DNA from: a virus
Virus record (IMG/VR): IMGVR_UViG_3300014806_000004
Length of the DNA: 64,000 nucleotides
Strand: one strand, 5' to 3'
In this document: positions 10,856-45,302 of the stretch, one piece after another
Layout of the letters: every line of letters starts with the position of its first letter
How positions within the stretch are numbered: the stretch's first letter is position 1
Made by a program: the position numbers and the translations under genes
The notes under the pieces: model-generated
Database searches by the model: none
Seen by the model: the letters and a program-made list of their open reading frames with translations, nothing else
What the model was told of the DNA's origin: nothing

Positions 10856-10936
10856 TACAGCAAAATAACAATTCGGGACAGTTAAGATTAAATTATCCAA
10901 TAAAAAAATTATATATTCAAGTGAGGGAAATTTTAA

Positions 10937-11275: not shown

Positions 11276-11461
11276 TATGCTCAAAACAGCAAAAAGAAAA
11301 GAAGATCTTTTGAACATCTAGCTAGATTGACTAAGAAAGTAAAAGAATCAATCCAAGATAGAAAAAATAGAGATAAACTTATAGTCGAGCATAGATATTC
11401 GGCTCCTAAAACTCATAGGAGAGGTCGATAATATTTTTCTGCGGTTAAGTTCTGTATCTTT

Positions 11462-11565
11462 CGGTCCCGTAACTACAACAACTCGAACAACGTTTGCAAT
11501 GTCAACAACGATGGATCTGCGAACAACAACAACTACAACAACAGCAACGGGCTGGCGCCGGATTA
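11462..11565 (+). repeat. DGR template repeat (TR)
   Basis: Non-coding and rich in AAC codons (cgtAACtacAACAACtcgAACAAC...). It is the adenine-containing partner of the VR and lies directly upstream of the RT gene. Confidence 0.85.
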
Positions 11566-11870
11566 GATGGAGCTATCATGTTGCGAGTTAAGCTGCGGAG
11601 CAGCGCAAACGAGCAACGCCTAAATAGTACCCCGGAGTATATTATTATCCATCTAATTAAGGTTTACTCTGGATTGCACCCACTATGTGGGGAAGAGATT
11701 GAGAGACCGTTAAAGAGCTTTGCTCTACAACTATCGAATAATATACTATAGGTAGATCTGCCTTTTCATCTAAGGAGAACTTAACCATTTCACTGAAAAA
11801 GTGGATAAAGTAAGACTGTAGACGTGGAGCTCGAGTAGCTACCACTATAGCTACATGATAAGGAGAAAGT

Positions 11871-13087
11871 ATGTCTGAAATAAACCAAGATACTGCTTTC
11901 GAGCGTTTTTGTAGTTTTGACGCTATGTATGATGCGTCTTATAAGGTATGTCGAAACATTCGATGGAAAGATAGTACAATTAATTTTGAAGAGAATAGGA
12001 TAGAAACAATTTTAAAAACAGAAGCTGATCTGCGAGCGTGTGAATACGAATAGCTTGTGTTTAGTTGTTTTTCGATAATCGAACGAGGCAAACCAAGAGA
12101 TATAAGAGCGTGTCATATCAACGACAGACTGGTACAAAATGCGTTATGTGAACAAGTTTTATTACCAGAATTAACTCCTAGATTTATCTACGATAATTGT
12201 GCGACTTTAAGAGGAAAAGGAATAGACTTTGCTTTAAAAAGAGTAAAGAAACACCTTCAACAAGCTCATAGGGAATATGGATTAGGAAAAGATTTTTATG
12301 GATTAAGAATTGATATTCAAAAATATTTTGATTCTATTGACCATAAATCTTTAAAGAAAGCAGCTAAACGTTTGATAAAAGATAAAAGAATTTATCAACT
12401 ATGCTGTTATTTAATAGATACATTTTCTTTTAAGCTAACAAAAGATTCCTCTCCCATACCAGGAAAAGATTATTATATTAGTAAACGGCACAAATACACG
12501 AGAATTAGTACCACTAATTTTAAGCCTGGCCGCAAATACTATGAATATGATAATAAAAGTCTTGGATTAGGAAGTCAAACATCACAATTATTCGCATTGC
12601 TAGCATTGAACGAAATTGACCACTTCATCAAAGAAGAGTTACATATTAAGTATTATGGTCGTTATATGGATGATTTATATTTATTCCACAATGACAGTCA
12701 ATACTTAGCCGAATGTGAAAAGAGAATAGAAGTTCGCTTAAATAAGCAAGGATTAAAGATGAATAAGAAAAAGACTACTATTACTAGAATCTCTCCTATT
12801 CACGCGGACGGCAAACGTCACGCTCCATTAAAATACTTAAAGTGGAACTTTTATCTCACAGACACTAATCATATAATACAAATTCCTTTTAAAAAGAAAG
12901 TGGCTCATTAGCGCAGAAAGTTAAAGAAAATGCAAGCGCTATGGCTAGAGGGTAAAATTTCAACAGATGAAATTTAGAAATCCTATCAAGGTTGGAGGGC
13001 ACATATTTCTAAAGGAACTTGTTTTTATATAATTCAAGATATGGACAATTATTTTCGTTCATTATTTAAAGGAGTTGAAATAAAGTA
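11871..13087 (+). CDS. DGR reverse transcriptase
   Basis: RBS AAGGAGAAAG. The N-terminus (SYKVCRNIRWKDSTINFEENRIETIL...ERGKPRDIRACHINDRLVQNAL) is typical of DGR RTs. It has LGLGSQTSQLFALLALNEID (DGR-type motif 4 with SQ) and YGRYMDDLYLF (YxDD). Three in-frame TAGs. TAA stop overlaps the next ATG. Confidence 0.85.
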
Positions 13088-13750
13088 ATGTATATTCTAT
13101 TAAATAGAGAGAATGTAGTAGTTGATATTCTTTCAGAAGCACGTTACATTAAACTGCAATCCTCAAATGGTATTGTCGTTGCCTGCGAGGAAGAAGAGGG
13201 AACTGGGGTTATCGGCTCAAATGGAGATACACATTATACTCTAATTAAAGCCGATGTATTAAATCAATCTAATGCTGTAAAAGTATTAGAGATAGAAACA
13301 ATTCCATCAGATGTTACTCCTAATTATTCAATATATAATCAAGAAGATGGAACATTCACTTCTGATTTAGATTAGGCAAAGTATGACAAACAAGAGGAAA
13401 ACAAGAAACTATTCGCAGAGTATCTTGCTACCCACCCACTAACTTGGGTTGATGGAAAAGAATATGGAATTACGTAGGAGGACCAATCTGAGATTAGCTT
13501 AAATCTCAATCAATATCAAGTCGCTCTCGCGGCTGAAGTAGAAAATCCTACGCTTGAGTGGCACGCTCGACACGAAGAATGTGTGCCATGGAATTTAGAG
13601 CAATTATCCGCTCTAAGTTTAGCTATTTCAAATGCGGTATATCCTAAATATCATTTAATGCAAGAATATAAAACTTAGATATTCGAAGCTGATTCAATAG
13701 ATAAATTAAAAGCTATTGAATTAAACTATGAAGATACCGACAGTGAGTAA
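13088..13750 (+). CDS. XkdW/DUF4376-like protein (family usually encoded beside tail-fibre genes)
   Basis: The sequence LATHPLTWVDGKEYGIT-TAG-EDQSEISLNLNQYQVAL...LEWHARHEECVPWNLEQL resembles PBSX XkdW-type proteins. Three in-frame TAGs. Confidence 0.4.
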
Positions 13751-23495: not shown

Positions 23496-26400
23496 TTACG
23501 CAAATTGGGCATAGATACCGTGCTAATTTTCTTTAGAAACATTTACATTTAGACTTCCTCCAGTTATCCATATTCCGCCACCTTCTGTTCGTAGAGCTAT
23601 GTTTCTAGAAGATTTTAAAATAATACTATGATCTCCTCGTTCAGTAAGAATACCAATATTCTCAGTAGGACCATAATCATCTTCTCCTTCAACATATCCT
23701 AAAGTTCCCAGCTTATTTCTCCAACGATTATCTAAAAATATATCTACTTGATTCGTCTAAACTAAACCATTATATAGTCTTGTGGCACCATTTTCCAATC
23801 CGCTTTCACTGATGATCCAGCCACCAATCTCACCATTATCACAAGTCAAAGTAGTTGCATTAATATCTCCGCTAATATCTACATTGTCTGATTCAAAATC
23901 ATCACACACAATTCTACCATTTGAATATAGTGTAGTTCTTCCTCCAGAAATTCTATTTGAACTGATGATCCAGCCACCAATCTCACCATTATCTGCATAA
24001 ATTGAACCATTAATCGTTGCATTTTTACACTACATTTCTCCAGAGCTAGTAACATAAAAGTAAGAAGATCCAGAGAAAACTGGTCTATCTGCCGTACTGC
24101 TAGAACTAGCTCCTGCCCAAAAACGATAAGTACCAGAGCTCGCTATTCCAGTTCTATAATTATCACTAGTTAACTTATTAGAAGAAAGAATCCAACCTCC
24201 AATATTTCCCTATTTAGCAGTAATTAATCCGCCTTTAGAAACAGAAAATTTAGCACTTGATGCTGTAGCACTTCCTGCCCAAATAGCAAAATCATTATTA
24301 TTAGTAGGAGTAGAAGTATTGGTTGGAGATTGGCTATTTAATTCAACTCTCGTTGAGCCAGAGCCGCTATATAGTCTATTGGTTTCAATAGTCCAACCAT
24401 TAGATCCTGTTTTCGTTCCTCCAATTTTACCAGAAGAGGCGTAAATAGTCCCTGAAACTTCTGCATTGGTTGCTTTTACAGTTCCATTATATTTTACTGT
24501 AAAAGCTCCTCCGCCAATCTTTATAGCTTCGGTAGATCCATCTGCTTTAAGATCAGCAAGAGTAATAGTCATTCCATTAGAGGCATCCCCACCTTCTTCT
24601 GAAGAATTCCCTCCACCATAAATCTTCGCTGAAGTTCCATCAATAATAATCTATCCTCCACCACTTTTAGCTCCAAAAAACGCTGTTCCATTTTCCATTA
24701 AACCAAAAGTATTAACTCCAGCTTTATAACCATATAAACCTATTTTATCTTGAACACTATCTTTTCCCATAACTACACCAGTAAAACGATTAAAACTATC
24801 TTTCTCTCCTGCTCCAATCTATGGAGCTAAGATATACTAGCCATTTTCTTCATCAATTTGTAGCTATGTGCCATCCCATCCATTTATTAGCTCATTGCCA
24901 TATGTATCAAGATATAAAATAACGGGATGGTAGATATATTTTCCTTCATATTCACATTTTAATAAAGCAATACTATTATCTTCAAAAATAAAACTAGATG
25001 CAGGTTCAAGATAATAAAGATTATCTTTTTCTTCAACTGTTAAAATTTCTTTTACAAGAGAAGAAATATTGCGACTATAATCCTAATTATCAACAATAAA
25101 TTCAATGTTATTGCTATAAAAGGATGGATTAACACCAGACGCAGTATATTTAATATAAGAAGGAATGGAACTAATATCAATATTATTTAATTCATCATCA
25201 CTAAAATTAACAGCAACATCAATAGGATAATTACAGTAAATTTCATAGGCTCTATTATTCTTATTGTCATTTATAGTTACCTAAACTTTTACATATCCAC
25301 CTGTTGGATTTGAAATTAATTGTGTTGTACCACTTGCTATTTTGCGGTCATCATTTTCACCTTCCCGCAATTCAATATTAACACCAGTCCATTTATAAGA
25401 TAAGATGTAATTACCATTATTATTAATTAATTCTCCATCTTTATATACATAGCATCTTATAGGTAATTCATTTACCCAAGATTCATCTCTATAAACTAAT
25501 GGAGTTAATCCAGATAGTTTCAATCCAGTGTCAGGATCAAATGGTCTAATAGCACTTACATACGTAGTACCGTTCGTACCCTAATCACCATCTTTTAAGA
25601 ATAGAATTTCTTTTCGGAAAGAATATTCCTGCTCATCCATAGTGATTATACGAACTAAGATAGTATTATTGTTAAAATTAACTTTATATTTCTACTTAAT
25701 AGTATAATGTAAAATATTACTATTGTCAACCCAGAGATTTTCAATCATAGACTCACTAGGATTATATCTTGAATTAGTAATATCTTTTCCATCTGGACCA
25801 ATCCATTCTACTTTATAAGAAGTTCCTACTCCATCTTTCCAAGTTAAAACAACTTGAAGAGTGCGCTCTTTTTCAGCGTCTTCAATAGCTATATCTCCAT
25901 TTGCATCATATCTGAATGTATCTTCTCCATTATAGGTAATTGTTACATCTTCTTCAGAAGAGCTGTTTGTAACAAGATGTTCTAATACAGAGATAATCTC
26001 GATATGTTCTTTATTATAAACTCCACAAATAAAAGTGACAGAAGAGTACAATAACAAATTAGTAACTGTGATGGAATTTTGCTATAATCCAACTGCTGTA
26101 TAGCTTCCATCTGGATAAAGCATATACCAATCTCCAATAAGAACGGTGTTATCCGCATTGTTCTAAATTTGAATGATAATATCTTCTCCTACTGTTGTTT
26201 GTTTAAGCTAAAAATCATAGTTACTTGTTAAATTATATATTATTACTTCCGCACTCAATGTTACGCTATCATTATATATAACCACTAATTTATACTACTT
26301 CTAATGTTTCACTTGCTCAGCCTTAAGTGTCATCGTATTGCTCTCGGACGCTGTGACGGGAGCCCATCCTACACCACCATTTTTATCGTAAGAATCGCTA

Positions 26401-27410
26401 CCTAACAAAACACTTACATCTCGCTCAAACCACTTACATTTACAAGTTTGTTCATCTATTATATTATCACCCTAATAAATTAATCGACCAACTAAATCAA
26501 GAGAAGAGATCTCGTTGGTAAATGAATTTCCTTGCGGGGTCGAAATATCTAAATAATATAAATTATCTGTTAAATCTTTCTGTTCAACAAACTAAATCTC
26601 TATATCCTTTACAAAAATGTTAGGTACAGTTCTATTCTCTTTATCTGTAACTACACCAGATTCCACATAACGATCATAGACAAAATTTTCTTCAAATAAC
26701 TTAATCTATTTAAGTCCAGTTAAATAATTTTTTTGAGCCTTAATAACCACAGATTGCGGGCTGTAGACCTAAAAGCGATAGGGGTCTCCATTAAAAGAAC
26801 TTAAATCAAGCTTATAAGAAACTATATCTCCACTTTTTGTAAAGAACTATATATCTAAACCATAATTTCCTTTGGTGTGTTCACAATGGAAAGTAGTTAA
26901 GAAAGAGGCTTTTATTCTAATAAACTCATTGTTATTTGCATACTATTGGAATAGTCCATGATATCCTTCTTCATTACCACTATAAATAATCTACTAACTT
27001 AAATCACTATCTGCTGGTGCGCCTGCTACGACGCCCCTTTCCGCATCTTTGTCATAATCATACATTGTATCAAATGTTGGGCTTTTTTCTATTATTGAAT
27101 TAGAAAGTGACAGCATCTCTCCATATGATAATGATTGTTCATTTATCTTACAAACAATTCTTTTTCTTGCAGATAAATCATCCTGGGGAATAGTAACATA
27201 TACAGTATCCCCTACTTTATACTGCTTTTTTACATCATCCGCAAAAGCAGAAACTATATTTCCAGAATATTTAACTTTATACTCTCCGCTATCAAGATTA
27301 ACAATACTACTAATCTCTGCTGAAATAGTCTTATCATAAGTTAATTTTGATAGTGCTTTATCAACTAGAATATCTATCGTCTAAAAGATAGATTCAGAAG
27401 CAGTATTCAT
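23496..27410 (-). CDS. Large fibre-like tail protein (1304 aa) with GGW repeats
   Basis: RBS AAGGAGGA. The continuous frame links the ORF fragments 25692..26057, 25281..25523 and 24210..24572. Repeated motifs NGEIGGWIIS(S/E) / GNIGGWILSSN / GWTIETNRLYSG are typical of phage fibres. About 25 in-frame TAGs. It sits where Dit/Tal normally follow the tape measure gene. Confidence 0.5.
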
Positions 27411-27432: not shown

Positions 27433-27469
27433 AGGGATAATAGGGGAGGAAATCTCCCCTATTATCCCT
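27433..27469. terminator. Perfect palindromic hairpin overlapping the tape-measure stop
   Basis: agggataataggggaGGAAATctcccctattatccct. Confidence 0.5.
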
Positions 27470-30400
27470 TTCTTCTATTTGCCCATTGAGTAGCATCATC
27501 AGCCAAACTACGAATAGCATCTTGAATTTCATCAGAAGATGTCGCATTTGGGAACTCAACTCGCTCAATATTTATATACGGTTCAACTGTGTTATCTGCT
27601 GGAGTAATCTAAGTATTAGATCCTAATCTTGATGCCATAAGATTAGAAATAGATAGTGCATTTCCATCAAGCGCTTTCTCTATAGAAGCTATAAAACTAG
27701 GTTCAAAAGCTCTTATAGCAGAAACCGCCGCGAGAATATTTTTCGTATCTTCTTGATTTAAAACTAACTCTTTTTCGTGCAAGAAAGCTAATTTAGCATT
27801 ATCAAATTCTCCAGTATAACCTCCTGTATCAAATCCGCTTATTTGACTTTCTTTTAACCAGCCATATGCAGAATTATTAGACTATACATGAATCGGATAT
27901 GGTCTGCCTTTAGCTATATTAGTTATTTTAACTTTCTTGCCGGGCCCACGTCTACCTGCTGGATCTGTGCCATAAGAATCATGATAATAAGTTCCACCAG
28001 TATAAATGACTTCGTCTCCTACTTCTGGGATTCCATTGCCACTTCCAGCTCCTCCACTGGAAGATCCGCTATTACTATTGCTAGAGTTATTATCAGAAGA
28101 TTGATCTGAATTAGCGGGAGGTAAATCATCTTTATCTATTCCTCCAGCGCTTTCTATTGTATTTCCAGCTGCTCTAGCAGCCTCCTCAAGAGCCCTTATA
28201 TATTCTCTAACTGATTCAGCCATGTCTAAATATTCTTGACTTAAATCTTGAATAGTGCTTATCTATTCTAACATCTAAGTGACAGCTTTCGATCCTGCAT
28301 CAGAACATAAATCAGTAGAAGTTGAAACATCGTCAATATAATCTTTTAAATCATCAAGGCTTGTTCCAGTCTAATCAGCCACTCCAGAGACAGTAGTTTG
28401 ATAATCTTCCATTGCTTCACTTGCTTCGTCCATGGCTTTAGATAGAAAATCTTCAAAATTTCCAGCATTAGAAGTCATATTAGCAAGATCTTTTGCAAAA
28501 ACATTATCAAATAAATCAATAAGTTTTGTATTACTTCCAACTATATCTTGAATCTATTCATTATCGGATAATAACAAATCAATAATACTAGAGCCAGAGT
28601 TAGCTATAATATCCTGAATTTCTTGACTTGTAATTCCAGTTAGATCACTTACCTTATCTCCCGCAACAATAGCCATATCAATTAAGGCTTTATTACCGGC
28701 TTCGGTCATATCCTAAATAGCGATCTGTTTTTCGTTCTCTAGATCCTTAACCTTCTGCGTATAATAAGAATAGATTTCTTGCGCGCGGGCAGATCTTTCC
28801 TCATCAGTCAAGGTCATATCAGAATAAATCTCTTTTATTTTATTCTGACATTCCTGCCAAGTAGAAATAATTTCTCTAGTAACATCTTCAACCTATTGTT
28901 TAGCTATATTATACCATTCATTCTCTGCATCAAGTAAATTCTATTCCGCATCTGCTATCTAGCTCGCATCTGCGGTGTATTGATAATTCCAGTTACCTTG
29001 ACTATCTCTTACTAATCTAAGCTGATTCTTTGCATTTTGAGCATCTTCAAGAGCCATCTGGGCCTAAAGAACATTATACTTGGCTTCAAGAATTTCTAGA
29101 TCATATTCAGATAGAGTATTATTCTCTCTACGAATGTCAATTTCTTCTTGTAACTATTTCAACTAATCTTTCATTTTAGAATTAGTGGCTTTATCAATAT
29201 CCTATTGAAGTTTATTATACCAAGAAGATACTTCATATGCTTCATTTACTTTATCTAAATATCTATCTTCTTGCTCAATGTAATGATCGAACTTGTCTTG
29301 TAGCAAATCTAAGCCAACTCCGCCAGAAACCGCCTATCCAAATTCATATACGGCTCTTTCAATAGCCTAAGTATACATTTCTTGTGCAGTTTCCATAGCG
29401 GCTTGCGCGGAACTTAACATCGCCTATTGAGCTTCATTATATTCTTCTAATAATGCATCTCGATTAGCTTTTAAACCATCATATGCTGGATCTGTTTCAT
29501 CACCATCTAATGCATCTAACGCACTCTAGGCTTCTAAAAGTTCCTATTTAATGCCGTCGTACCACTATTTATTTAACTGCGCATTTGCTATTTGAGCTTT
29601 CATTGTTTCTTCGCTTACTTTTTGGAGCTATTCAAATCCTTCTTCGGTTTTATATGTAACCCCCTAAAGTGTATACAATTCTTTTATAAGTCCAAGAACT
29701 GATTCATTATGATCAAGTTGATCAGTAAATTCAGCGAATCTTTCAGATGCAGCGTCTAATGCATTTGGCAACATTTCTTCAAGACCCTCTACCCAATCAA
29801 GTAGAGCTTCTGCGGTAGAAATTATTTTACCCTATAAATCAGATATTTTACTTATAATTCCATCAATACTAGTCGCATCCGTTGCGTTAGCCAATTCTTC
29901 TTGATAACTTTTAAGTGTTTCTTCATAATCCTTGATTATTTTTATATTTTCGTTCACACTATTTTCATCAATACGAGCGACTTCAATACCATGAGTTAAT
30001 TCATCACCAAATGATTCTGCAATCTTTTTAGTTAATTCACGAACAGCATCTTTAGCATCTTTTATTTCTATTACAACTTCAAGTTTATATTCAATCTAAC
30101 TCAATCTATTGTCTGCGATGCTTCTCTCTAGTTCTTCCTATTCGTCCTTTACTTCTTGAATTTTGTCAAGAGTTTCTTCATATTGGGCGAGAGCATCCTA
30201 ACGAGCTTGAAATAATTCATCAGCAGCTTCCTTTTGTAACTGCCAACTATCATATTCTGCCTATCTAGCTTCCTATTCATCTTTAGTAAGATTACTAAAG
30301 GTAACTAAAAAAGCATTATAATCTGCCAAGAAATTATTATTATAATCATCTATTATAGATTGAAGAACACTTTGATAACCTTCAATTTCTCCATTTTCAT

Positions 30401-33400
30401 CAAAAATAAGAGAATTATTAAACAACCCTTGAAGATCTGCCTAGTCTTTTGTAAGATAAGTTTCAGCTTCATTAAGTAGTTTGTTATAATTAGCTTGCTA
30501 TTTCTCTAATTCTTGAAGTTCTCTCTAGTATGCTTGAAGTTTATTGGCGCCATAGGCTCTATCTATATTATTTCCAATATCATCTAATAAATCGTTCTAA
30601 TTCTCAATTTCGCGAGTTATTTCATGGTATCTATCTTCAATATCCTTTAGAGTCTTTTCATCTTCTTCGTCATACTTAGTGCCTTCATTATCTCCGCCAC
30701 TTGAACTTCCCTTTACTCCTTCTATAGCTCCATCAATAGAATCTAATAATTTGCTCTAGGCTATTTTTGCTGCTGCTATAGCCTCATTATACCCATCAAT
30801 ACTCCCCTAATAAATGGCCCTTAGCGCTTCTCCAACTGCCTAAGATTGCTTAGCTTCAAGTGCCTCACTAGCATCACCATAAATATTTAAATCGTCTGCG
30901 GTTACAGGTTCTACATCTAAATTTGCAGTTAAAGAATTTAAGAAATCATCAGCGTTACTCGTATCTATTGTTGTTGCAGCCGAACTATCAAAAGAAACAG
31001 CAGAAGTATCAAAATCTTGCTTAGTAACATTATCAGTTCCTATTTGAGATACTTGAATTCCAGTAGCATATGCCGCATCTCTAATTTTTTCAAGATTAGC
31101 AAGAACATTTTGAGTATTTAACTATACATTAGTACTCATGTTCTGCGCGCCCTAAGCAGAATACTCGCTAACATTAGTCCATAAAGTCTACTAATTTGTA
31201 TCTTGTGCGGTTAAACTATTGACCTAATCATCTAACATTTCTCCATTAGCAAGATTCTAAGCATTTACATATCCCGCTAATAAAGTTCTCTTCTGCTCAT
31301 CTGATAATTCGTTTATAGTTAATTCTCCAGAAGCTAGCTGATTAGCGATCTTAAGCGAAGCTTCAGCCTCTCCTCGTTTAGCCTCTAAAAGAGAAATAAG
31401 ATTTTGAAGCATATTAGATTTGGTATCAGCATCAACAGCTAATTGCCCCTAAGAACTATTATAAAATGCTTGATACATCTCATCTGTTAAAGCAAATGTA
31501 CCATCCCTTAATAGTTCCGCGTTAGCTATAAAACCTGGATAGATAGATTCAATAGCCTTAGCTGCTTCTCTACTAAAACTCCAAACTTGTTCTCCAGCTT
31601 CATTGGTAGTCTAGCTTACTCCATCAGAAATAGCATCGAATACACTTACAATTCCATCAACGGAATTTTCAATCTAATCTAATTGATTCTAAAAATTTAA
31701 TTCTGCATTTATTTGTAACTAAGCTGTGCTAGAATCTATATCATCCTATAAACTACTAATTAGCTACTCTGCTAAAGTTACAGTATCAATTTTATCTTGA
31801 GCTTCTTTTGTCCCATACTCAAATGCACTAGCTACGTTATCCGCAGTTTCGGTTTTAAAAGATTCCCAATCAAAATTTTCACCTAACAAATCCCAATCAA
31901 TCGTATAATTATCAAGATTAAATTCTTCTCCGCCATTTAAGCTACCTTGATAATCATTATACGCTTCTCGAACTTGTTCCCAAGCATAAACAACTTTTTC
32001 TGCACGTTCTAATTCAGAATCGCTATATTGATTTAAAATATCCTATTGCTCAGTTATTCTCTTTTTTGCTTCACTAATCTAATCTATTAATCCATTATTG
32101 ACAGCCTAATAGGACTCATTTATAATCCTCTATAAATAACTCTATTGTTCAACTAAAGTCATAGCAAGGAACTAATTAAAATCAATAATTCCTTTTTCTT
32201 GATTTCCCCAATCAACAGTTTTAGAAAGTGATTCTAATCCTTCTCGATCTAAATCTCTATCTCCAAGAGTTTCTAAGGCAGATTGTGCAGTAGTTAAAGA
32301 TTCTGTTGCGTTTTCAACTTCGGAAATAGCATCAGTATATTTTTTAGCACTGTCATAGGCATCCTAAAAAGTCTCCTATGTTAAAGCACCCCAATTTAAT
32401 AAATTTAATACAGAAGTATCATAATTTTCATCTGTAAAAATAGATTCAAGATTACTTTTTAATTCTTCATCATTGACTAATTCTTCAACCTCTAAAATTG
32501 CGTCATAAATATCTTTAAAGCCACTAATATCAGGATTCAGAGAAGTAGATACTAAATCATTGATTATATCGTTTAATTCTTCGCCTTCATACCCAGCAGA
32601 AGTGAGCGCCTCTGTAACTTCGTTAACCCAAATTTTATACTACGCTAAACTTGATACTTGATCATCGGTAATAGTCTAATTATTAAACTCTCCAAGCTAT
32701 ACCCGAATAGTATTTATACTCTCTTTAGTTTCTTTATATTGAGTGACAACCTCTTCCATTTTATCTCGCCACTCAACAGCAGCATTGTAAAGTCCAGATG
32801 CTCCTCTTTCCGAAACAGTCATGCTATTATTCATCAAATTAATAGCATTATTTAATTGATCATAAAAATTAATTAATTCTTCTGTATTATTTGGGTCTAT
32901 AGAAAAAGCTAAGTTTCTTCTTCCGCCAATTACATTGTCATTCCAACTACTATATAAAGCGTCCACATTATTGAGAAGAATATTAGATGCAGTATCTTCT
33001 TCGGTGCCATTCCAAAAATCATTAAAACCAGTAAAAGACCCCTCATAATTTCCACCAAAATATACGTGGCCCACGCCTTCTCTCGCGGTTTCAAGAATGA
33101 GAGTTTCATTCGCACGTAACGCTTCTTCTTGGGACTACAAAGTTTCCTAAAGTTCTCTTCTTTGAGCTTCTTGAGCAGCTTTTAAAACACTATTATAATC
33201 TTCATACTATCCACTTAGTCTAGCTAATGCACTGCCTTCTAAATCATACGCTTCAGCCAACTAACGAGTTAAATCATCTAACTCTTCTTTTCCATCCCCA
33301 GTTTCTTGATAAGTAGATAAGGCATTTTGAGTAGATTGAATTAACTCTCTATTCGCTTGTGCTTCTTCTTTTTTTGCATTTGCCGCATCAATAGAGGCCT

Positions 33401-36188
33401 AAGCAGCAGCCAAGGTTGCTTCATGCTATGCTTTTATAGCACTTGTTATTGCAGTAATCGCTATTATTGCTACCATAATTGCAGCAGTTAAGATGCCGGA
33501 AGCCATAGCGGCTTTCTGCTTCGCCATAGCAAGCTATTCTGTCGCTAAAGCCTCTACTGATGTTGCCGCGGCGTCCGCCGCTGCTGCAACAGCATGAGCA
33601 GTAGTTAACATATTTAAAGTTTTATAAACAGAAATAATAGAGGGTAGTAACATACCAAGAGAAGTAAACAAAGCTACAATTCTTTCAGTTGAAGTCATAT
33701 CTTCATCAGAAAAAATTCTTCCAATGCTCTAAAAAGCATTCATAATCATAGTTAAACTAGAAAGAGAACTTCCAACCTAAACCAATATTGTAGCCCAATC
33801 TCTCGTTGGTATTAATGCTTTTGTAATTACACTAGGGAACTTCGCTAACAATTCCTAATATCGAGCCTCTTGTTCAGTTGTTCTTGCAGTAACAGACTCC
33901 AATTTTGTTAATTCATTAATATAAGAAGTAACTACTCTTGGATCGGCTCCCATAGTCTATAAAATAGTCCCAAGTTCACGAATTTGCAATTTTGCATTTT
34001 GAGACTAATTTTTTAACCCCTCTAATTGCTAAGTCAGCCATTCAATCTAAGCATAATTATGTTCTTTGCCCGTAACACTAGATAATAAATTACGAAGGCT
34101 GTCTCTAGTCGCAGTTCCAGCGCTTTCAAGTTTTTTAAATTCTTGATACACTGTATCAAGTTTTGTAGATTGCTAAATTAAACTAGTTAACTAAGTAGTA
34201 ACATCATTATAAATTTTATCAAGGTTACTATTAGCTCTTATATTTAACTAAATTTGATTACTTTTATTTCTACTATTAAATTTATTTATTTCTGCTTTAA
34301 CTTCTTCTTGCCAGCCATCTTTTATTCCTATATTAAAATAAATAGTATCTCTAAGATTTAATACATTTTCCCTAGACTAAATCTACTACTAAGAATATGT
34401 CTTTAACTAATCTTGCAAAATACTTAATTTTAACTGTTCTGTCTAAATTAATCTACGACCATTAGCATCCATCGCGTCGTAGTTACTATTTATTTGGCCC
34501 TATATATTAGCCTAGTCAACCATAATATTAAAAAGATTTTTTTCAGCCTAAGACATAGAGTTTGTTAAGCCTAATTGAGTTGCTATCTCAGCCGCTGATG
34601 CCTACAAATTTCTCGCTCTATTCTACTCTAATCCAGATAGAACTTTTATATTAGCCACCATAGAACGCATTGATTCAGCAATCTTATTTCCATAAATCCC
34701 ATTAATCAACAAAGCGGTACTAGCTAAAATACCATTTAACCCTCCCATTGCATCAATGGCGTCTGCAATACCAGATAAAAATGGAGTTAAGACATTATCT
34801 GCATTTATATACAAATCTGGATTTATGACACTATCATAAATATCCTCAGCAGATGCTTTTACTCTATCTCTAGCAGCTTCCCAAGATTCAGCATAAATAT
34901 CTGCCTGTTCCTAAAGAGATCCCTCTGCTCCATAAGCACTAGCTAAATTCTCCTAAAAGAAATCCCAATTATCCATAAGTGTAATAAGACGAGTATATTG
35001 GCGAACTCCGGCTACGGTCTAAGCCAAAGCAATCTACTAGTCATTAGATAAGGTCTCCCATTTTGAACCCATTTCATCAAGTAAGGTATCCATAGTTTTA
35101 ATCTCACCATTAACATCAAAAATATCAATACCCACTTTTTCAAGAGCTTTAGAATATTTATTTAATGTAGTGCCATCATCGAGAGTTTCTCCAAGATTTA
35201 AGCCTTGGATACGAGCAAATAAAGTTCTAAATGCTGTACCTACTGTATTAGCAGACTCACGTGTCGTAGCAGTGACAGTAGCAAGAGCAGAAGCAGCATA
35301 TTCGTAACTTAATCCAACTGTATCTGCTACAGAGGCAAATTGTTGGATACCTTCTGAAATTTCATCAGAGCTAGACGCTGTATCGGCGCCTAAACGCACC
35401 ATTACATCAGCATAATATTCAAGACTCTTACTTCCATCATAGAAGTTGTTCCAAACTGCGGTCAGCTGATCCGAAGCGGTCTATGCACTAATTCCTGCGG
35501 CATTAGCCATTTTAATAGTAGTTTCAGTTCTATCTAAAACTTCCTATTCAGTAAGACCCTATTGATAATAAATCAAAGCAGCATCACTATATTCAACAGT
35601 AGTTGTACTTAATGCTTTTGCTGCTTCATTTGCCTATTGAGCAAATTTAGCCATGTCTTCCGCAGAATTTTCAGTAACTATACGAATATTTGTTAATGAT
35701 TCATTTAGATCTTGTGCATACCCATAAGCTGATTCTATGGTTCCCACAAAACTATTTAACGCGGTGGAGGTAATCTGCCATCTCATAGTATTTTTCATAG
35801 TAATCCATAACTAATCAAATATTTTGCCAGTGCGCAATGCTGGAAGCTCCGCTTTTTGAATCGCTGTTGCTACATTTAAAAAAGCCTTTTGCCCCTCGGT
35901 ACCAATCGAAATTAACGAGTTGGCATAATCTTTAAGAGTTCTTCCGCTAGATTTTAAACTATTTTCAAAAGCTACTAAATCTAACTTTCCAGTCCCTTGA
36001 TTAAATGCCTAATGCATATAAGTAGATAACTCTAGCGCAGACTAAGAAGCTTGTCGCAATTCTGCTGTAACTTTAGAACCGGCACTGATTTTATTTAAAG
36101 ATTGAACTGCCTCGTTTACTGCTCTGTAAAGTTCAGCAGTATCAACATCAAACCCAATCTAATAATTTAATCTTCTATTATTAGCCAC
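27462..36188 (-). CDS. Tail tape measure protein (2908 aa)
   Basis: GTG start 9 nt after AAGGAGG. One frame (top coordinate congruent to 2 mod 3) links the ORF fragments 35037..35402, 34623..34814, 32697..33074 and 27882..28223. The N-terminal region has the TP901/phage TMP signature (DTVGLSYEYAASALATVTATTRESANTVGTAFRTLFARIQG...) followed by long coiled-coil sequence. Every internal stop I checked is TAG. Confidence 0.85.
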
Positions 36189-36223
36189 AATCCTTTTCCT
36201 CCTTTATCACCCATAAAACAAAT

Positions 36224-36256
36224 AAGGCTCTTGAGAATTATATCTCAAGAGCCTTT
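36224..36256. terminator. Hairpin between the chaperone gene and the tape-measure gene
   Basis: aaggctcttgagaATTATATctcaagagcctt. Confidence 0.4.
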
Positions 36257-36293: not shown

Positions 36294-36833
36294 TTAATCT
36301 TTTCCAACCACATCTTTAATTACTGATAAAGTTTCAAGATTCTCACCATTTTTAATTTTTTCCATTATATCAGTAATATATGTATCTAATCCAGAAGCAT
36401 TTTTATTCATCATTTGGATAATGCCTGCGGCAGAGTTATTATATCTTGCTATATCGCTTAAAGTATCTCTAACTAAGTCTTCAATAAAAGACAATTCATC
36501 TACTGGAATAGCACTTCTAACTGCATCAATAACACCATTAGTCTCTAGTGTATCATAAGTTTTGGCAATATTTTCATGCACATCTTCTTGCTCAAAAACA
36601 ATTCCACCATACCATCTGCAAATAGCAATAGCAAAATAAGTTTCTACTCTTACCGGACTAAAACACCCAGTCATCTCATCTATCGCTAAATCTGCGACAA
36701 AAGTAATAAGATTTGTTTTATCTGCAATCGGAAGATAATTAACCACAGATAAAATCTTATCTTCTCCAATTTTTACTTCTGTATATTTAATTTTAGGCTC
36801 CAAACCCAAATCTTTAAAAGTAATTTCACTCAT
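36294..36833 (-). CDS. Putative tail assembly chaperone (position immediately upstream of the tape-measure gene)
   Basis: 179-aa acidic TAG-free ORF with no direct homology call. The assignment rests on the conserved chaperone-then-TMP gene order. Confidence 0.45.
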   Translation of the reverse strand: MSEITFKDLGLEPKIKYTEVKIGEDKILSVVNYLPIADKTNLITFVADLAIDEMTGCFSPVRVETYFAIAICRWYGGIVFEQEDVHENIAKTYDTLETNGVIDAVRSAIPVDELSFIEDLVRDTLSDIARYNNSAAGIIQMMNKNASGLDTYITDIMEKIKNGENLETLSVIKDVVGKD

Positions 36834-36898
36834 TGTAAAAACTCCTTTATCTCATTTATATTTTTATTATACTAGAAAAATTAACTATTGTCAAGTTT

Positions 36899-38341
36899 TT
36901 AATATGCGTATTTAGACAATATATTATTGTTTAATGTAGCAGAAATTATTATTTTACTTATAACTTCATTAACTATATTACTACGAGTTAAAGCGTCTAA
37001 TACATTTGGACCAGTATTTCCATACCACTTATTACCAGTAGAATTTTCTCCCCCAATAGAAACTATTTCATGACCGCTATTGCGAACTATGTCATCACAA
37101 ATATTATTTATAATACGCTAAATAGAAAAAACTTTACCATTAACAATAAGTAACTGACCAAGATGTCCTTTAGAAGAAGCTAGACCGCCAGAAGAAACCC
37201 ATTCATTAAAAAATGAGGCGGCTACCGATGCACGAATATTATTAAAAGATTCTTCAAAATCTGATCCAGTGAATCTATGAGCAATCATATTATAAGCAAG
37301 ATATTTTTCTGGCTAACCAGAAAAATAATCCCCTACATTCATATTTGAAAAAACCTAAATTCTATTTGCAGATTTCTTTTTATTCTACCACTTTGCATTA
37401 ACATTAGCACTAATTTCTATATTAAATACTTGATTACCCTTAGTTACTGACAAATTAAAAACATCATTATTAAAAACTTTAACAGCACCTCTACTTCCAT
37501 TGTCAGAAGTAGTATTCTATCCTCTATCAACCCACTTTAATTTTCCACCAGACTACTTAATAGCAGTATCTAATATACTATCCGCAGTATTAATTCCAAT
37601 AGATATACCTTCTGCGACTATAGCTTGACTAATCTAATTTCCAATAACTTTTCTAAAAATATATGATATTGTATTAGCAAAAGATCTAGAGTTTACACTT
37701 CCACCTTCATTTAATCTTGAAACCGCTCTACTCAACGAATCTATTACTTCTTTCGCTACATTGATATCCCCATCTTCAATGGACATAACATAGTGCTACT
37801 AAGAATTATCTATCTAAAAACTAGTACCAATTAGCGATCTTCCTATCTAGGTTAAAGCATCAAGAACACTGACATTTATCATATTGGCTTTCATAAGAGC
37901 CTATATCAATAATCTAAAAAAATCATTAACTCTTTTTATATCAGGTGCCCCATTAGCCAACAAATTATTAAAATTGCCAGCCTATTGTAATATAGTATTA
38001 TAATTCTCAAAATTTACCTATCCACCGGCTAATTCAATTCCTTCATTGATACCTGCCGCGATCTAATCAAGAGTAGAATCCAATAAGGTACCAATCTATA
38101 AATCACTCAAAACTCTTAACCCACTCGCGGCAACTGGACCTTTAGACCGCATCTATTCTTGAATTGATACAATCTAAGTCTCAATTCCCGCAGTCTTCAT
38201 TTTACTCATTGCCTCTTGATACTATCCACTAAAGAGAATATTTGCGGATTCTACATCTCCATATTCTCTTAAATGACTACTATGATAAACAATATAATTT
38301 AAAGACCAACGCTATACATAATCATAAATATTAACATCCAT
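36899..38341 (-). CDS. Hypothetical structural protein (480 aa)
   Basis: RBS AAGGAGATATAGGAG then ATG 38341. The frame was verified against TAA 36899. About 25 in-frame TAGs. Confidence 0.35.
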
Positions 38342-38400
38342 ACTCCTATATCTCCTTATAAAAAGAAAAAGGGAGGACTTTATTAAGTCCTCCCTTAAAA

Positions 38401-39792
38401 TTAAATGGTGTCATCGCTAACAGAGACTAACTTATTGCGCATTTTTGCGCCAGAATAAGTGCTTGTGCTTTCTGCAAAACTGAGCTTATTATTAATAGTA
38501 TAACTCTTCTCAAAGTCTCCGTTAATCTTAGTAATCTTAGCTGTAATAGGAGTTGTATTACTCTCCTTAGTAAGAATTACTAATAGGCCATCTGCCAATT
38601 CTGCGCCATCTACGGTTTGAGTCTTTGTATTGCCCTCAATACTGTCATCAGTAGAGAAGTATTTCTCATATGCTGGGTTAGTTGTTACTACAGTATACTT
38701 GGTACTATCGCTCTCTACTGGAATTTGGAGGCTAATTTGTGCGGCTTCTGGAATTGTATCTCCATAAGCCTCAGTATCATAAGCCTTTCCTGTTACAATA
38801 CCAGTTACATCAAGTTCCGCCTCTGTGGCACTGTTAGAAACAAAATTTACAGTTACATCAGCAGCTTCACTCTCATAAGTACCAACATTCTCAGAGCATG
38901 GCTCACGAGAGCCTTCGGTTTCCCCAGTTTCATCAGTAATTACCTGAATAGCGGCAAGAACTTTATGAGTTTGATCAAACTTAGTGTAGTCTGGGAAAGC
39001 GTCCATTGTGAATGTAAAGGTAGATGGATCACCGTTAGCAGCCATGCTGAATGTGAAGTTACTCTGAACCTTACAGTTAGGAATAATAAATTCAGCAGGC
39101 ATATCTACGCCATCGCTCTCACGGCGGAATAGAGTAGAAGCTTCAAGATAATAGTTTCCACCAAACTTATCAGCGGTAATCTCAATCATCTGGGCGCCAC
39201 CAGTGCGCTTTACATAATAGTCAACTAAAACGATAGTACCAGATGGGAGCACTCCCGCATGAGAATAACAAGTTAAAGTTGATTTTCCGTCCTCTGTATA
39301 AGAAACAGAAACAGGAATGCATGGTTCAGCATTAACTTGACCATCATCTCCTAATACCATTACAAAAATGTCAGCAGAACGATGATACATTTCATTTTCA
39401 TGATCTGCAAATCCATTCCAGCAAGCTTTATCAGGAATTACGATAGTGTTAGCTGTTTCAACTTCTACCTGAGAAGTTTGATGAACGTAAATTGGAGCTT
39501 CTTTTGTTGCATCAAGCAGACCTGCACCAGAAAGAATAGAGAAGCTCTCTGGAGAAAGTAAAGCATCTTCCATTGTAAATGTTAGAGTACGCTCACCTTC
39601 CCAAGCAATCAATCTAGTATATCCACGTCCGCCCTGTGCGTATACAGTTGTTGCAGCACCTTCAAGAGTAGAGGTTCTTAAAGTGTCAAAGTACAAAACT
39701 GGTTCATTTTTATAGAACTTACGATTACCTAAAGTCTGATAGCTTTTGGCACGAAGTACTACATCGCAAATCTCACGAATACCAAAACGCAT
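38401..39792 (-). CDS. Major tail (tube) protein candidate with a C-terminal Ig-like extension
   Basis: 463-aa TAG-free ORF with RBS AAGGAGGAAT. It sits between the neck genes and the chaperone/TMP. The N-terminal MRFGIREICDVVL resembles siphovirus major tail proteins, and the C-terminal Thr-rich beta region looks Ig-like. Confidence 0.5.
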   Translation of the reverse strand: MRFGIREICDVVLRAKSYQTLGNRKFYKNEPVLYFDTLRTSTLEGAATTVYAQGGRGYTRLIAWEGERTLTFTMEDALLSPESFSILSGAGLLDATKEAPIYVHQTSQVEVETANTIVIPDKACWNGFADHENEMYHRSADIFVMVLGDDGQVNAEPCIPVSVSYTEDGKSTLTCYSHAGVLPSGTIVLVDYYVKRTGGAQMIEITADKFGGNYYLEASTLFRRESDGVDMPAEFIIPNCKVQSNFTFSMAANGDPSTFTFTMDAFPDYTKFDQTHKVLAAIQVITDETGETEGSREPCSENVGTYESEAADVTVNFVSNSATEAELDVTGIVTGKAYDTEAYGDTIPEAAQISLQIPVESDSTKYTVVTTNPAYEKYFSTDDSIEGNTKTQTVDGAELADGLLVILTKESNTTPITAKITKINGDFEKSYTINNKLSFAESTSTYSGAKMRNKLVSVSDDTI

Positions 39793-42942: not shown

Positions 42943-43476
42943 TCAATCAGAAATAGCTACTCTGCGTTTTGGAGCATCCTCACTTGTAGTTGACACTCTT
43001 CTTACAGGTTTCTCTTCCTTAGGATTCTTTTTATCATCTGCTGTTAATTCTAATGCTTTAGTAACATTAAATCCTAATTGTTTTTCCAAAGCATCTCTTT
43101 TAGACATATCATTTAAGGGAAGAGAAATAGCATGGGATTTAATCAGATCTTTGGTGCCTTCTGGAGCAAAATCAAGAGCATCCTTAAATTCATCTAAAGA
43201 ACACGTATTCATCCAAGAATCAATCTCTTCTTCTTTCATCCAATACTCTGGTTCAACCCTACCATTAATAAGATATTCAACAATCTCTCTATCATCCACA
43301 AGCAAGTAATTATAAATTAATTTGCGGCCTCCAGGTGTTTGTACTAGCTTTTCTAGTTCAGATACTTCAAGTTCCTTGTGTTCTCCAGGGTAAAACATAC
43401 GGCGCACGCCCAATTCAGGCAATCTATATACAACACGACCTGCGCTCTTATTATAAACAGTGCAACTATTTTTCAT
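42943..43476 (-). CDS. Hypothetical head protein (TAG-free)
   Basis: Intact 177-aa ORF ending at TGA, with an RBS upstream. Confidence 0.4.
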   Translation of the reverse strand: MKNSCTVYNKSAGRVVYRLPELGVRRMFYPGEHKELEVSELEKLVQTPGGRKLIYNYLLVDDREIVEYLINGRVEPEYWMKEEEIDSWMNTCSLDEFKDALDFAPEGTKDLIKSHAISLPLNDMSKRDALEKQLGFNVTKALELTADDKKNPKEEKPVRRVSTTSEDAPKRRVAISD

Positions 43477-43540: not shown

Positions 43541-44593
43541 TTAACCATTATTTGGATTTGGGTTAGTATTATCAAGCTCGCCTTGAAGTTCAGTATCAAC
43601 ATAAGAAAAGATGTTATTCGCCATCATTACACCGACACCAACCTTACGGTAAACCTGAATATCACGAGACCAGTCGTCATTATCATCGCGTTCGCGCACG
43701 TGGGTAGTACCTTCAAAAGCAACTTTTACAGGACGGCTCTCAGCTCCACCAGGAATAATCCAAGCATAACCTGGATCAATCATCTTTTTGGAGTTAGTCT
43801 CATCCTCAAGAGTTTGAGGTAGAATTACCACTCTAGTTCCCTTGTAATTTGCAAGATAACCAGTTCCCCAATACTGATCTCTCATATTGTCAGAAATCCA
43901 AGCATCATTGTCTGGAATCATTTTTACTGCAAACTCACGAGTGCAATAAATAGTTGGTTGACCATAAGCAGTAGCAGTATTTACAAGATAATCCATAGTT
44001 GGTTCGTCAAAACCAGCAACAGCACAACGGTTTGCTGCGGGAAGCTGATTGATAGAACCCATAAGAGCTTGAGCAATCTCTCTATAAATAAGCTCTTGCA
44101 TACCCTCTGTTACAATTTGAGTAAGTTCTGCAAAGTTTACTCTTCCATCAAGGAACTCCTCAAATCCGATACGAGCAGCTCCACCAATGGCGCTTGTTCC
44201 AACTTCGAAGCTCTCAGAACCAAGCTTAAAGGTCTCATACACACCAGCAAGCCCCACACGAGTAATGAATTGCTTAGCGCGAGTAAGTCCAGTTCTACGA
44301 GTAAATACAGGCTTGTCGCCTTGTGCGAAAGTTCTAATCTCAGCAAAATTGCCATAAGAATTGAGTAAACGATTAGGAACAACTTCATCCATAGTCTGCT
44401 CAATTAAAGAGAATAGAGTATTTTTATTTTCTCTATAAAGTTCATCTGTGCCAACAAATTCATTTAGCTCATTACGCAAAGTAGTATTTAAAGCGTCATA
44501 GCTAAAAGACTCTCCTTGATAGCTATAGGTACCAGAAGGATTTGCATTAGCGACAGTTTTCATTAAACTAAGTAAATTAGCTTTATCTAACAT
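43541..44593 (-). CDS. Major capsid protein candidate
   Basis: Intact 350-aa TAG-free ORF with RBS GGAGTGAAGAAG. It lies directly downstream of the scaffold-like gene. Its composition and size fit an HK97-fold capsid protein. No family-level match was made by eye. Confidence 0.5.
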   Translation of the reverse strand: MLDKANLLSLMKTVANANPSGTYSYQGESFSYDALNTTLRNELNEFVGTDELYRENKNTLFSLIEQTMDEVVPNRLLNSYGNFAEIRTFAQGDKPVFTRRTGLTRAKQFITRVGLAGVYETFKLGSESFEVGTSAIGGAARIGFEEFLDGRVNFAELTQIVTEGMQELIYREIAQALMGSINQLPAANRCAVAGFDEPTMDYLVNTATAYGQPTIYCTREFAVKMIPDNDAWISDNMRDQYWGTGYLANYKGTRVVILPQTLEDETNSKKMIDPGYAWIIPGGAESRPVKVAFEGTTHVRERDDNDDWSRDIQVYRKVGVGVMMANNIFSYVDTELQGELDNTNPNPNNG

Positions 44594-44612: not shown

Positions 44613-45302
44613 TTAACCTACACGCTGTACTTTTACACCAGGTTGAAGATCTGGCATAGTATACACTTTTACTACTGCAAAGATAGGATCTAAATCTCCA
44701 CCTTTAGCAGAAGTTTCAGTATCTTTAGTTAAATATCCATCAGTATCAATCTTTAGACGATCGCCTACTGCAAGCTCTCCGGCATTAGCTTTAATGGTAT
44801 TAGTAGTCCAAATATCACCAATACTAATCTTAATTACGCGAGGTACCATTTTAGTTCCTTCTGGCATCAATGCAGGATAAGTAAATGTCTCCATATTTTT
44901 CTTATATGCTACATCACTACCTTCGCGTACAGCTTCTCCGGTATAATCACTTATTGTAGCAAGTGTAGAAACTGTTTGTCCAATTGGACTATATACACGA
45001 GCATTATAATTATCCTTAATCATAGCAAAATCAGCATCAGTTTCGCGATCTCTATAAATCTTTACTTCATTAAATACCATCATCCAGGCGCCAGAAGTAG
45101 CTTCCGTACTAAAATCGCATACGCCTTTTGCATAATCATACTTTACAAATTGACCGTTCTCAAGAATCTCAATAGCGCTAGCTGCGGGAAGCTGAGCATA
45201 TACTTGACCATTTCTTGGAGCGGAAAGATGGTTTGGCTCCACTTGACCATATCCATACTGGACAAAAGTGGCATTACCTAATCTTTTAGAACTCTTAGCC
45301 AT
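44613..45302 (-). CDS. Capsid-associated protein (second capsid or decoration protein?)
   Basis: Intact 229-aa TAG-free ORF with RBS AAGGAGGAT. It lies between the scaffold and capsid-protein candidates. Confidence 0.4.
   Translation of the reverse strand: MAKSSKRLGNATFVQYGYGQVEPNHLSAPRNGQVYAQLPAASAIEILENGQFVKYDYAKGVCDFSTEATSGAWMMVFNEVKIYRDRETDADFAMIKDNYNARVYSPIGQTVSTLATISDYTGEAVREGSDVAYKKNMETFTYPALMPEGTKMVPRVIKISIGDIWTTNTIKANAGELAVGDRLKIDTDGYLTKDTETSAKGGDLDPIFAVVKVYTMPDLQPGVKVQRVG

Follow-up and report, generated by a model that had tools for sequence, protein, structure and literature searches.

A single 2,908-codon tape measure protein gene with 100 in-frame TAG codons in a gut phage

The 64,000-nucleotide stretch of viral DNA in the IMG/VR record IMGVR_UViG_3300014806_000004, referred to here as the window, carries on its minus strand, at positions 27462-36188, a genuine, single and correctly delimited gene for a tape measure protein (TMP). 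In our assessment the gene very probably encodes, as one protein of 2,908 codons, the TMP of an SPbeta-like, siphovirus-type gut phage whose late genes are translated with TAG read as glutamine. A preliminary description of the window had pointed to a single GTG-initiated frame of 2,908 residues at this place, and computation with TAG as a sense codon bears this out, the strand being minus.

One continuous frame on the minus strand

Read from 36188 to 27462, the frame holds 2,908 sense codons, of which exactly 100 are in-frame TAG and none is TAA or TGA; it opens with GTG at 36186-36188 and closes with a TAA stop codon at 27462-27464. Given the base composition of the window, the probability of meeting neither TAA nor TGA in 2,908 codons is about 1e-73. 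An overlooked TAA or TGA inside the frame was a possibility raised in the preliminary description, and none is present; the same description spoke of 'dozens' of recoded TAG codons, which was right as to their presence and imprecise as to their number. A coding frame on the plus strand of this interval was rejected, with stops found throughout, and the GC skew of the window places the genes between ~14 and 52 kb on the minus strand. Over the whole window, the DNA contained in open reading frames (ORFs) of at least 150 amino acids (aa) rises from 16 kb under the standard code to 58 kb with TAG as sense.

The start codon is kept in relatives. A metagenomic contig that is 98.7% identical to the window over 28.6 kb (L003) has a TMP with the same GTG, 2,908 codons and 101 TAGs (a contig of 98.7% identity is present in SRR10499726), and a TMP ortholog at 49% identity (L004) retains both the GTG start and the start peptide VAKRLNYQVGF, upstream of the Met used by the public gene call. 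An MANN N-terminus is common to the TMP of the window and that of Enterococcus phage VRE9_3. Code-aware public gene calls are placed at internal Met codons, M58 in P0001 and, in P0013, the equivalent of M131; they lose 57-130 N-terminal residues of the TMP and with them the conserved, GTG-initiated N-terminus. Full-length orthologs exist at 41-99% identity. The preliminary description had also entertained two separate genes, the second with an internal start and a distinct N-domain; no sign of an internal start or of a second N-domain was found within the frame, which is collinear with the single-ORF TMP of VRE9_3.

Tape measure identity and protein architecture

The protein's N-terminal part was recognized by two families of profile. 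TIGR01760 (tape_meas_TP901) matches aa 149-493 with a score of 132 bits, the cutoff being 28.8, and covers profile positions 6-342 of 349; PF10145 matches aa 187-394 over its full length (profile positions 1-201 of 201) with an E-value of 2e-29 and 103 bits against a cutoff of 33.2. These matches confirm the TP901-type N-domain named in the preliminary description. PHROG matches to the N-terminal 500 aa come in addition from 11 TMP families, the best at 1e-58; the profiles of two of these families are 2,625 and 2,675 positions long.

Beyond this domain come two or three hydrophobic segments between aa 798 and 914 and then ~1,700 residues of proline-poor helical sequence. Proline is scarce (0-3 per 200 aa up to ~aa 2600), and by periodicity analysis the signal at 3.45-3.7 residues outranks all others in most stretches of 200 aa. 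Over the long range, the sole phase-coherent signal in the core is 11/3 and not 3.5, for aromatic residues (p<0.004) and for charged residues (p=0.04). A periodicity of 11 and 18 residues has been described for TMPs (PMC5099701). Because the 11/3 signal matches it, 'hendecad-like' is the more accurate term: the 'heptads' of the preliminary description capture the local helical periodicity, of 3.5-3.65 residues in most 200-aa stretches, and mislabel its long-range form. When the protein was cut into 120-aa chunks and these were compared with the full sequence by BLASTP, no internal repeats emerged, only three weak off-diagonal matches.

The C-terminal end is built differently. Of the 120 closest clusters, no more than 15 share a small domain (aa 2719-2786) that is predicted to be beta-rich and gave a sub-threshold match to a GW domain (E 0.14). 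AlphaFold2 modelling of the C-terminal 236 aa, performed on the 99%-identical P0001, returned a mean pLDDT of 43, with local values of 56-71 in the beta-rich domain, too low for a fold search. The C-terminal module that follows (aa 2787-2908) is common to VRE9_3 and every relative inspected. Neither Pfam nor NCBIfam contains a lytic domain that matches the TMP, even at E<=10 on the C-terminal region, and the protein does not appear to be of the type with a built-in peptidoglycan hydrolase (SLT/M23).

From what is known of lambda gpH and TP901-1, a few extended copies of the TMP would lie inside the tail tube. The C-terminus would nucleate the tail-tip initiator complex, and the tube protein would then polymerise along the TMP up to its N-terminus, fixing the length at ~0.145-0.15 nm per residue. 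On infection the TMP would be ejected, and its hydrophobic segments may help to form the DNA channel. With the first TAG at codon 10, no meaningful TMP would be made before TAG is decoded, which would lock the gene, like most of its neighbours, to the late recoded phase of infection.

Predicted tail length and conservation of TMP length

The length of the tail was predicted by several calibrations. At 0.15 nm per residue, 2,908 residues correspond to a tail of 436 nm. For TP901-1, whose TMP sets tail length at 0.145 nm/aa (PMC5099701), ~127 residues are non-contributing, and the same calibration applied here, (2908-127) x 0.145, gives 403 nm. A ratio for the Lactococcus 949 group of 480 nm/3,280 aa (0.146 nm/aa), which pairs the tail of PhiL47 with the TMP length of AM4, two different phages, gives 426 nm, and the helical residues alone (~2,650) give ~390 nm. 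Together these calculations predict a tail of about 390-436 nm. The preliminary description derived a tail longer than 400 nm from TMP length, and a tail of ~400 nm is a reasonable estimate in the light of the 436, 403 and 426 nm obtained here; its placement 'near the upper end' of siphovirus tails was overstated, as longer tails are on record for cultured phages: tails of 470-480 nm have been measured in the 949 group, the 480 nm being that of PhiL47 (PMC3888941), and a tail of 800 nm in Thermus phage P23-45, whose TMP has 5,002 aa (bioRxiv 10.1101/2022.12.01.518664).

Searching with the TMP returned 6,782 protein matches at E<=1e-10. In the 120 best TMP clusters, lengths run from 2,643 to 3,618 aa, with a median of 2,844 and a 5th-95th percentile range of 2,790-2,935, and relatives are for the most part 2,780-2,960 aa long; their contigs reach 149 kb, and single clusters hold 569-894 member sequences, 569 being the size of the 90% cluster of the nearest TMP. 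Outside these clusters, the TMPs of phAss-1 and two relatives, TAG-recoded gut phages, have 3,149, 3,150 and 3,209 aa (PMC10607447), that of the cultured Lactococcus phage AM4 has 3,280 aa, YomI of SPbeta has 2,285 aa and the TMP of VRE9_3, the closest cultured relative, has 2,673 aa. The length of the TMP is not unusual within its lineage, where the protein is an ordinary member of a known group. Relatives of up to 3,618 aa, together with the phAss-1 group, AM4 and P23-45, overturn the earlier characterization of the gene as 'exceptionally long'.

Comparison among relatives of similar size was informative about how this length is kept. P0011 (2,841 aa) matches aa 61-1030 of the window TMP at 49% identity and aa 1815-2907 at 90.5%, with nothing detectable between; the segment from ~aa 1030 to 1815, the first part of the ruler core, is thus non-homologous in relatives of nearly equal total length. 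Two longer relatives, P0041 (3,370 aa) and P0048 (3,618 aa), match aa ~1850-2050 of the window TMP twice, and a module of ~200 aa is duplicated in them. Length kept despite the replacement of sequence, and grown by duplication of a module, is the pattern that selection for length would leave in a ruler. For a link between TMP length and tail length the evidence is indirect, namely this conserved length (median 2,844 aa) in the face of a replaced central sequence.

It is also conceivable that only part of the TMP acts as a ruler, with a large segment serving as a cargo or ejection domain, in which case the tail would be clearly shorter than 0.15 nm x 2,908. P23-45 offers a precedent, the N-terminus of its TMP being an RNA polymerase (bioRxiv 10.1101/2022.12.01.518664); in addition, the last ~230 residues of the window TMP form a linker, the beta-rich domain and the C-terminal module rather than an extended helix, and the N-terminal 500 aa are a conserved domain for which extension is assumed. 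Set against this, Pfam and NCBIfam show no enzymatic or globular domain besides the TP901 core, proline is almost absent to ~aa 2600 with helical periodicity throughout, the total length is conserved across replaced central sequence, and the 0.146 nm/aa of the 949 group holds for the whole protein. We consider a partial ruler unlikely.

TAG as glutamine and the load of recoded codons

To identify the amino acid at TAG, the window TMP was compared with that of L004 over 2,729 aligned positions at 48.7% identity; an alignment with VRE9_3 was uninformative in this respect, at ~20% identity. Opposite the TAG codons of the window TMP, L004 has Gln at 17, TAG at 14 and Glu at 12 positions, and TAG codons of L004 face TAG 14, Gln 12 and Glu 9 times in the window. 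The genuine CAA/CAG codons face Gln 31, Lys 17, TAG 12 and Glu 10 times. The substitution spectrum of TAG (Q, E, A, N, K) is that of genuine Gln codons and unlike that of Tyr, Trp or Leu codons, and the first TAG of the window TMP, at codon 10, aligns with Gln in L004. In the phAss-1 phages TAG is likewise Gln, with a Gln-type tRNA-Sup(CUA) (PMC10607447). These results support the reading of TAG as Gln.

Were TAG instead read as another amino acid, such as pyrrolysine or tyrosine, the protein would differ at 100 positions. No Gln-type suppressor tRNA was found for the lineage in the sequence searched, ARAGORN labels CUA tRNAs 'Pyl' by default, and at codon 2769 some relatives carry Tyr, all of which would leave room for such a decoding. 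The facing residues, mostly Gln or TAG, and the Gln-like spectrum speak for glutamine, as does the typing of the phAss-1 suppressors as Gln by tRNAscan-SE (PMC10607447), and we regard a different amino acid as quite improbable.

Recoding extends over most late genes. Besides the 100 TAGs of the TMP, there are 14 in the large terminase subunit (TerL), 12 in the portal gene and 27 in a gene for a 929-aa tail protein. All genes of the window terminate with TAA or TGA, both of which are read by RF2; the RF1 of the host would therefore be dispensable for the phage. In the TMP, TAG accounts for 100 of 206 Gln-type codons (49%), and in most neighbouring late genes the fraction is 0.4-0.77; the TMP is not specially targeted by TAG, since its share lies in the range of its neighbours. 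Its TAGs are evenly spread (KS p=0.32).

The yield of full-length TMP is the per-codon efficiency raised to the power of 100, which amounts to 0.6% at an efficiency of 95%, 37% at 99% and 61% at 99.5%, and a yield of 50% needs an efficiency of at least 99.3% at each TAG. With 100 TAGs in the TMP, decoding should be close to complete, above ~99% per codon, which speaks for full reassignment during late infection and against leaky suppression, and fits a late switch of the code (bioRxiv 10.1101/2021.08.26.457843). In TP901-1, the last 60 residues of the TMP are essential, and a mutant with a further deletion in the C-terminal region is tailless (PMC5099701). Failure to decode TAG is thus expected to result in no tail, because the terminated product would be without the C-terminal segment that is essential in TP901-1. 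The preliminary description had warned that any failure of suppression truncates the ruler, which is literally true and misleading, in that the expected outcome is the absence of a tail and not a shorter one.

Most minus-strand late genes carry TAG, and the plus-strand genes inspected at 54-64 kb are TAG-free. The latter stretch (54000-64000) is of early type, with small genes that include PARG-like, AbrB/SpoVT-like, HAD nucleotidase-like and DnaQ-like exonuclease genes, and has a G+C content of ~41% as against 33%. It contains four near-consensus TTGACA-17-TGnTAtAAT promoters, which are sigma-70-like, at 56108, 59645, 59963 and 61352, and repeated G+C-rich terminator hairpins, among them an identical 32-nt pair at 60969 and 63740. 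A switch of the code late in infection has been modelled for recoded phages, and TAG-free plus-strand genes of early type with sigma-70-like promoters fit this published model (bioRxiv 10.1101/2021.08.26.457843). Elsewhere in the window, 4 TAGs occur in a plus-strand gene for FolD (methylene-THF dehydrogenase/cyclohydrolase; 52985-53800) and 6 in a minus-strand gene for a serine recombinase (6748-7419).

Five late genes on the minus strand are free of TAG: 43541-44593, 38401-39792, 44613-45302, 42943-43476 and 36294-36833, with 13, 12, 8, 2 and 2 Gln codons, respectively. The first two encode the major capsid and tail tube proteins, in a neighbourhood in which TAG makes up 40-77% of Gln-type codons. 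Capsid and tube genes are TAG-free in L004 as well (1180-2226 and 5973-7355), where a gene between tube and TMP has 22 TAGs. This pattern suggests selection against TAG in the proteins of highest copy number. A further-reaching proposal is that TAG provides graded control of yield with an unconventional decoder, beyond an on/off lock of late genes. The highest-copy capsid and tube avoid TAG, low-copy proteins such as the TMP use it for about half of their Gln codons, and the efficiency to the power of 100 would keep the TMP far below the tube (presumably 3-6 against ~600 copies per virion); as the large tRNA array of the phage has no canonical CUA tRNA, the decoder might be a non-canonical RNA, for example a 116-120-nt tRNA-like gene beside two tRNA-Gln genes, or decoding might follow from inactivation of the host RF1. 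We hold this proposal to be an outside chance.

The late structural module around the gene

The coordinates of the TMP gene, its parts and its neighbours are collected in Table 1. On the minus strand the genes run in the order tube (of the YomU type), 480-aa protein, 179-aa protein, TMP and 1,304-aa protein, which is the position of a tape measure. Searched against PHROGs with TAG as sense, the late module as a whole comprises a sigma-factor-like protein, the terminase large subunit, portal, capsid, tail tube, TMP and distal tail proteins. The sigma-factor-like protein (phrog_5767; 51518-52729, minus strand) heads the module and has a C-terminal zinc-finger/HNH-like region.

Table 1. Positions in the window of the tape measure protein gene, its protein segments and adjoining features
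Feature	Positions	Strand	Remarks
Conserved C-terminal module	27465-27830	minus	aa 2787-2908; motifs DTGGYTGEF and LAFLHEKELVLN
Small predicted beta-rich domain	27831-28034	minus	aa 2719-2786
Gly/Ser/Asn-rich linker	28035-28145	minus	aa 2682-2718
Proline-poor helical ruler core	28146-33341	minus	aa 950-2681; 11/3 periodicity of aromatic and charged residues
Hydrophobic, transmembrane-like segments	33447-33797	minus	aa 798-820, 837-855 and 896-914
TP901-family TMP core	34710-35744	minus	aa 149-493; PF10145 at aa 187-394
TMP coding sequence	27462-36188	minus	GTG start, 2,908 sense codons including 100 TAG, TAA stop
Ribosome-binding site AGGAGG	36198-36203	minus	9 nt 5' of the TMP GTG
13-bp G+C-rich hairpin, then T-run	36224-36255	minus	between the 179-aa gene and the TMP start; terminator-like
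179-aa protein, no TAG	36294-36833	minus	phrog_30570; adjoins TMP upstream; tail assembly chaperone candidate from its position only
12/12 consensus sigma-70-type promoter match	36866-36894	minus	between the 480-aa and 179-aa genes
480-aa protein, 20 TAG	36899-38341	minus	conserved position between tube and TMP
Terminator-like hairpin	38369-38396	minus	directly 3' of the tail tube gene; hairpin scan
Tail tube protein, 463 aa, no TAG	38401-39792	minus	YomU_Tube / phrog_2729, with C-terminal extension
17-bp perfect hairpin over the TMP stop codon	27433-27469		stem palindromic; terminator-like on the plus strand only in the scan
1,304-aa protein, 26 TAG	23496-27410	minus	directly downstream of TMP; presumed distal tail or tail-tip component by position

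The order of the upstream genes is that of VRE9_3 (phrog_31155 > 6123 > 4051 > 2729 ... 30570 ... TMP) and also that of SPbeta (yonB ... yomW, yomV, yomU ... yomI). Precomputed Pfam matches at L003 name YonD_N as well as YonB, YomW, YomV_2nd and YomU_Tube (PF27364, PF27256, PF27211 and PF27173; that to YomV_2nd, PF27211, is weak); the YomU_Tube match there is a 463-aa protein that is identical to the window tube protein at 460 of 463 positions. A phmmer search of the tail tube protein against PDB sequences gave no match. Homologs of YonB, YomW, YomV and YomU thus appear to stand in SPbeta order, as in a virion module of SPbeta type. The tail is most readily taken to be of siphovirus type.

The hairpin between the 179-aa gene and the TMP could attenuate transcription before the TMP. 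Terminator-like hairpins after the tube gene and before the TMP would suit a stepwise lowering of expression downstream, and could amount to a transcriptional tuning of the stoichiometry of tail genes.

The TMP might alternatively belong to a contractile-tailed, myovirus-type phage, since TMPs set tail length in myoviruses too and a 480-aa protein of unassigned function lies between the tube and TMP genes. No PHROG sheath family was found among the 18 module proteins scanned, the 480-aa protein being judged by PHROG match only. The tube protein is of the YomU type, like that of the siphovirus SPbeta; non-contractile tails have been measured for the 949-group relatives that the TMP matches (PMC3888941); and such long TMPs are called typical of siphovirus morphology in the description of phAss-1 (PMC10607447). 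A contractile tail is very improbable.

Observations that weigh against the favoured reading, and the search for a TAG decoder

Several observations count against the reading of the gene as the TMP of an SPbeta-like siphovirus with TAG as Gln. Both siphovirus morphology and tail length are deduced for a phage that is known as sequence alone, and the 949-group calibration joins two phages, as stated above. Compared pairwise by BLASTP with YomU and YonB of SPbeta, the tube and capsid proteins match only marginally (E ~1e-3), and the relationship to SPbeta is for this reason a remote one, at the level of profiles only. Neither a tail assembly chaperone nor any programmed frameshift was identified. 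Finally, no CUA tRNA was found in the window, in the 10 kb to its left or in an array of at least 27 tRNAs to its right, as seen in near-identical contigs, with ~60 kb of the genome lying outside this search.

The genome of the phage is estimated at ~147 kb. The window itself contains no tRNA and no Rfam family above threshold, and the array on the right was seen in L034, L046, L047 and L050, contigs that are near-identical to the right flank of the window. As a positive control, ARAGORN called both phAss-1 suppressors, which adjoin a tRNA-Leu(UAA). Recoded phages that have no detectable suppressor tRNA are reported (PMC10607447; bioRxiv 10.1101/2021.08.26.457843).

The array, of at least 27 genes, starts ~15 kb past position 64000 and lies about 15-25 kb beyond it. 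It includes a phage-encoded tmRNA (RF00023) with the tag DNDYFENHLAA and, between tRNA-Gln(UUG) and tRNA-Gln(CUG), a full-length ROOL RNA (RF03087, 350 bits). It also holds an atypical tRNA-like gene of 116-120 nt (L047 9685-9804 and L050 6982-7097; RF00005, 51 bits), which ARAGORN missed; the acceptor, D and T arms are canonical, and ~47 nt folded as two hairpins take the place of the anticodon arm. Examined as a possible interrupted suppressor, this gene showed no conserved CUA loop, and the loop sequence differs between L047 and L050.

A diversity-generating retroelement

A complete diversity-generating retroelement (DGR) is present on the plus strand at 9059-13088. It consists of a target gene (9059-10855) with the variable repeat (VR) at 10739-10841, the template repeat (TR) at 11462-11564 and a reverse transcriptase (RT) gene at 11871-13088. 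The reverse transcriptase (PF00078) adjoins a Big_3/DUF6273 protein. Between the 103-nt template repeat and the 3' end of the target gene the identity is 86%, and 14 of 14 mismatches lie at adenines of the TR.

Comparison with known phages

The phAss-1 group ('Caudoviricetes code 15 clade', proposed Phassvirus; Babkin et al., 2023, PMC10607447) consists of uncultured human-gut phages of 133-138 kb in which, as here, TAG is Gln in virion genes including those for TMP, TerL and portal, and TMP ORFs are very long. Relatives of phAss-1 include the non-recoded Enterococcus phage EF1 (PMC10607447). The TMP core of phAss-1 is 38.6% identical to that of the window over aa 134-428. The window phage differs from phAss-1 in belonging to another lineage, with its larger estimated genome and a TMP that is 240-300 aa shorter, and whereas phAss-1 has tRNA-Sup(CUA) beside tRNA-Leu(UAA), the equivalent place here yielded none. 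A megablast search with 20 kb, run on 50,697 phage records, returned no match and hence no close nucleotide relative. Membership in Phassvirus, which is defined by nucleotide identity of ~80% or more and synteny, was rejected on this result and on the identity of the TMP core.

The best tblastn match among annotated phages is the TMP (phrog_34405) of the Enterococcus phages VRE9_1-4, H1, EF1 and EF5. The TMP of VRE9_3 is collinear from end to end by BLASTP, with aa 43-1039 of the window TMP corresponding to 48-1040 and aa 1098-2906 to 951-2673. Genomes in the VRE9 group are of ~134-142 kb and have the same upstream gene order; unlike the window TMP, theirs uses the standard code with no in-frame TAG, at ~20% identity, and is 235 aa shorter. 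Literature searches turned up electron microscopy neither for the Enterococcus VRE9/EF1 group nor for Enterocloster phage PMBT10.

YomI of SPbeta (Spbetavirus, Bacillus subtilis) shares with the window TMP the TP901-type core, the conserved C-terminus and a syntenic virion module. In contrast to the window TMP, YomI, which is 620 aa shorter, is encoded in the standard code, and some records of SPbeta type describe it as a (lytic) transglycosylase. In the Lactococcus 949 group (Audreyjarvisvirus), a TP901-type N-terminal region matches aa 12-519 at 23.5% identity; these phages have genomes of ~130 kb and a very long non-contractile tail, whose ratio to TMP length supports the ruler estimate. 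The TMP of AM4 is longer than that of the window and uses the standard code, and its likeness is detectable only in the N-terminal region. The founding member of TIGR01760, the TMP of TP901-1 (937 aa; Mahony et al., 2016, PMC5099701), has one third of the length; it is largely alpha-helical, with hydrophobic regions and essential N- and C-termini, and its role in length has been shown experimentally.

What the gene means for phages of this group

Taken under the standard code, the same DNA would be read as a series of short ORFs, as several genes or as a pseudogene in decay, with 101 fragments of at most ~148 codons and an equivalent region in GenBank phAss-1 shown as many small 'hypothetical proteins', a view effectively refuted by the improbability of a frame so free of TAA and TGA, by the conservation of frame, start and length in relatives with TAGs at different positions, and by collinearity with uninterrupted standard-code TMPs.

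A TMP of this size leaves current understanding unchanged. The gene is one more data point for TMPs of 2,800-3,600 aa, and so for tails of ~400-500 nm, as the rule among these widespread large phages, whose cultured members infect Bacillota. The practical consequence is one of annotation, as the phAss-1 record illustrates: under gene calling with the standard code, a common gut phage has its largest gene split into ~100 pieces.

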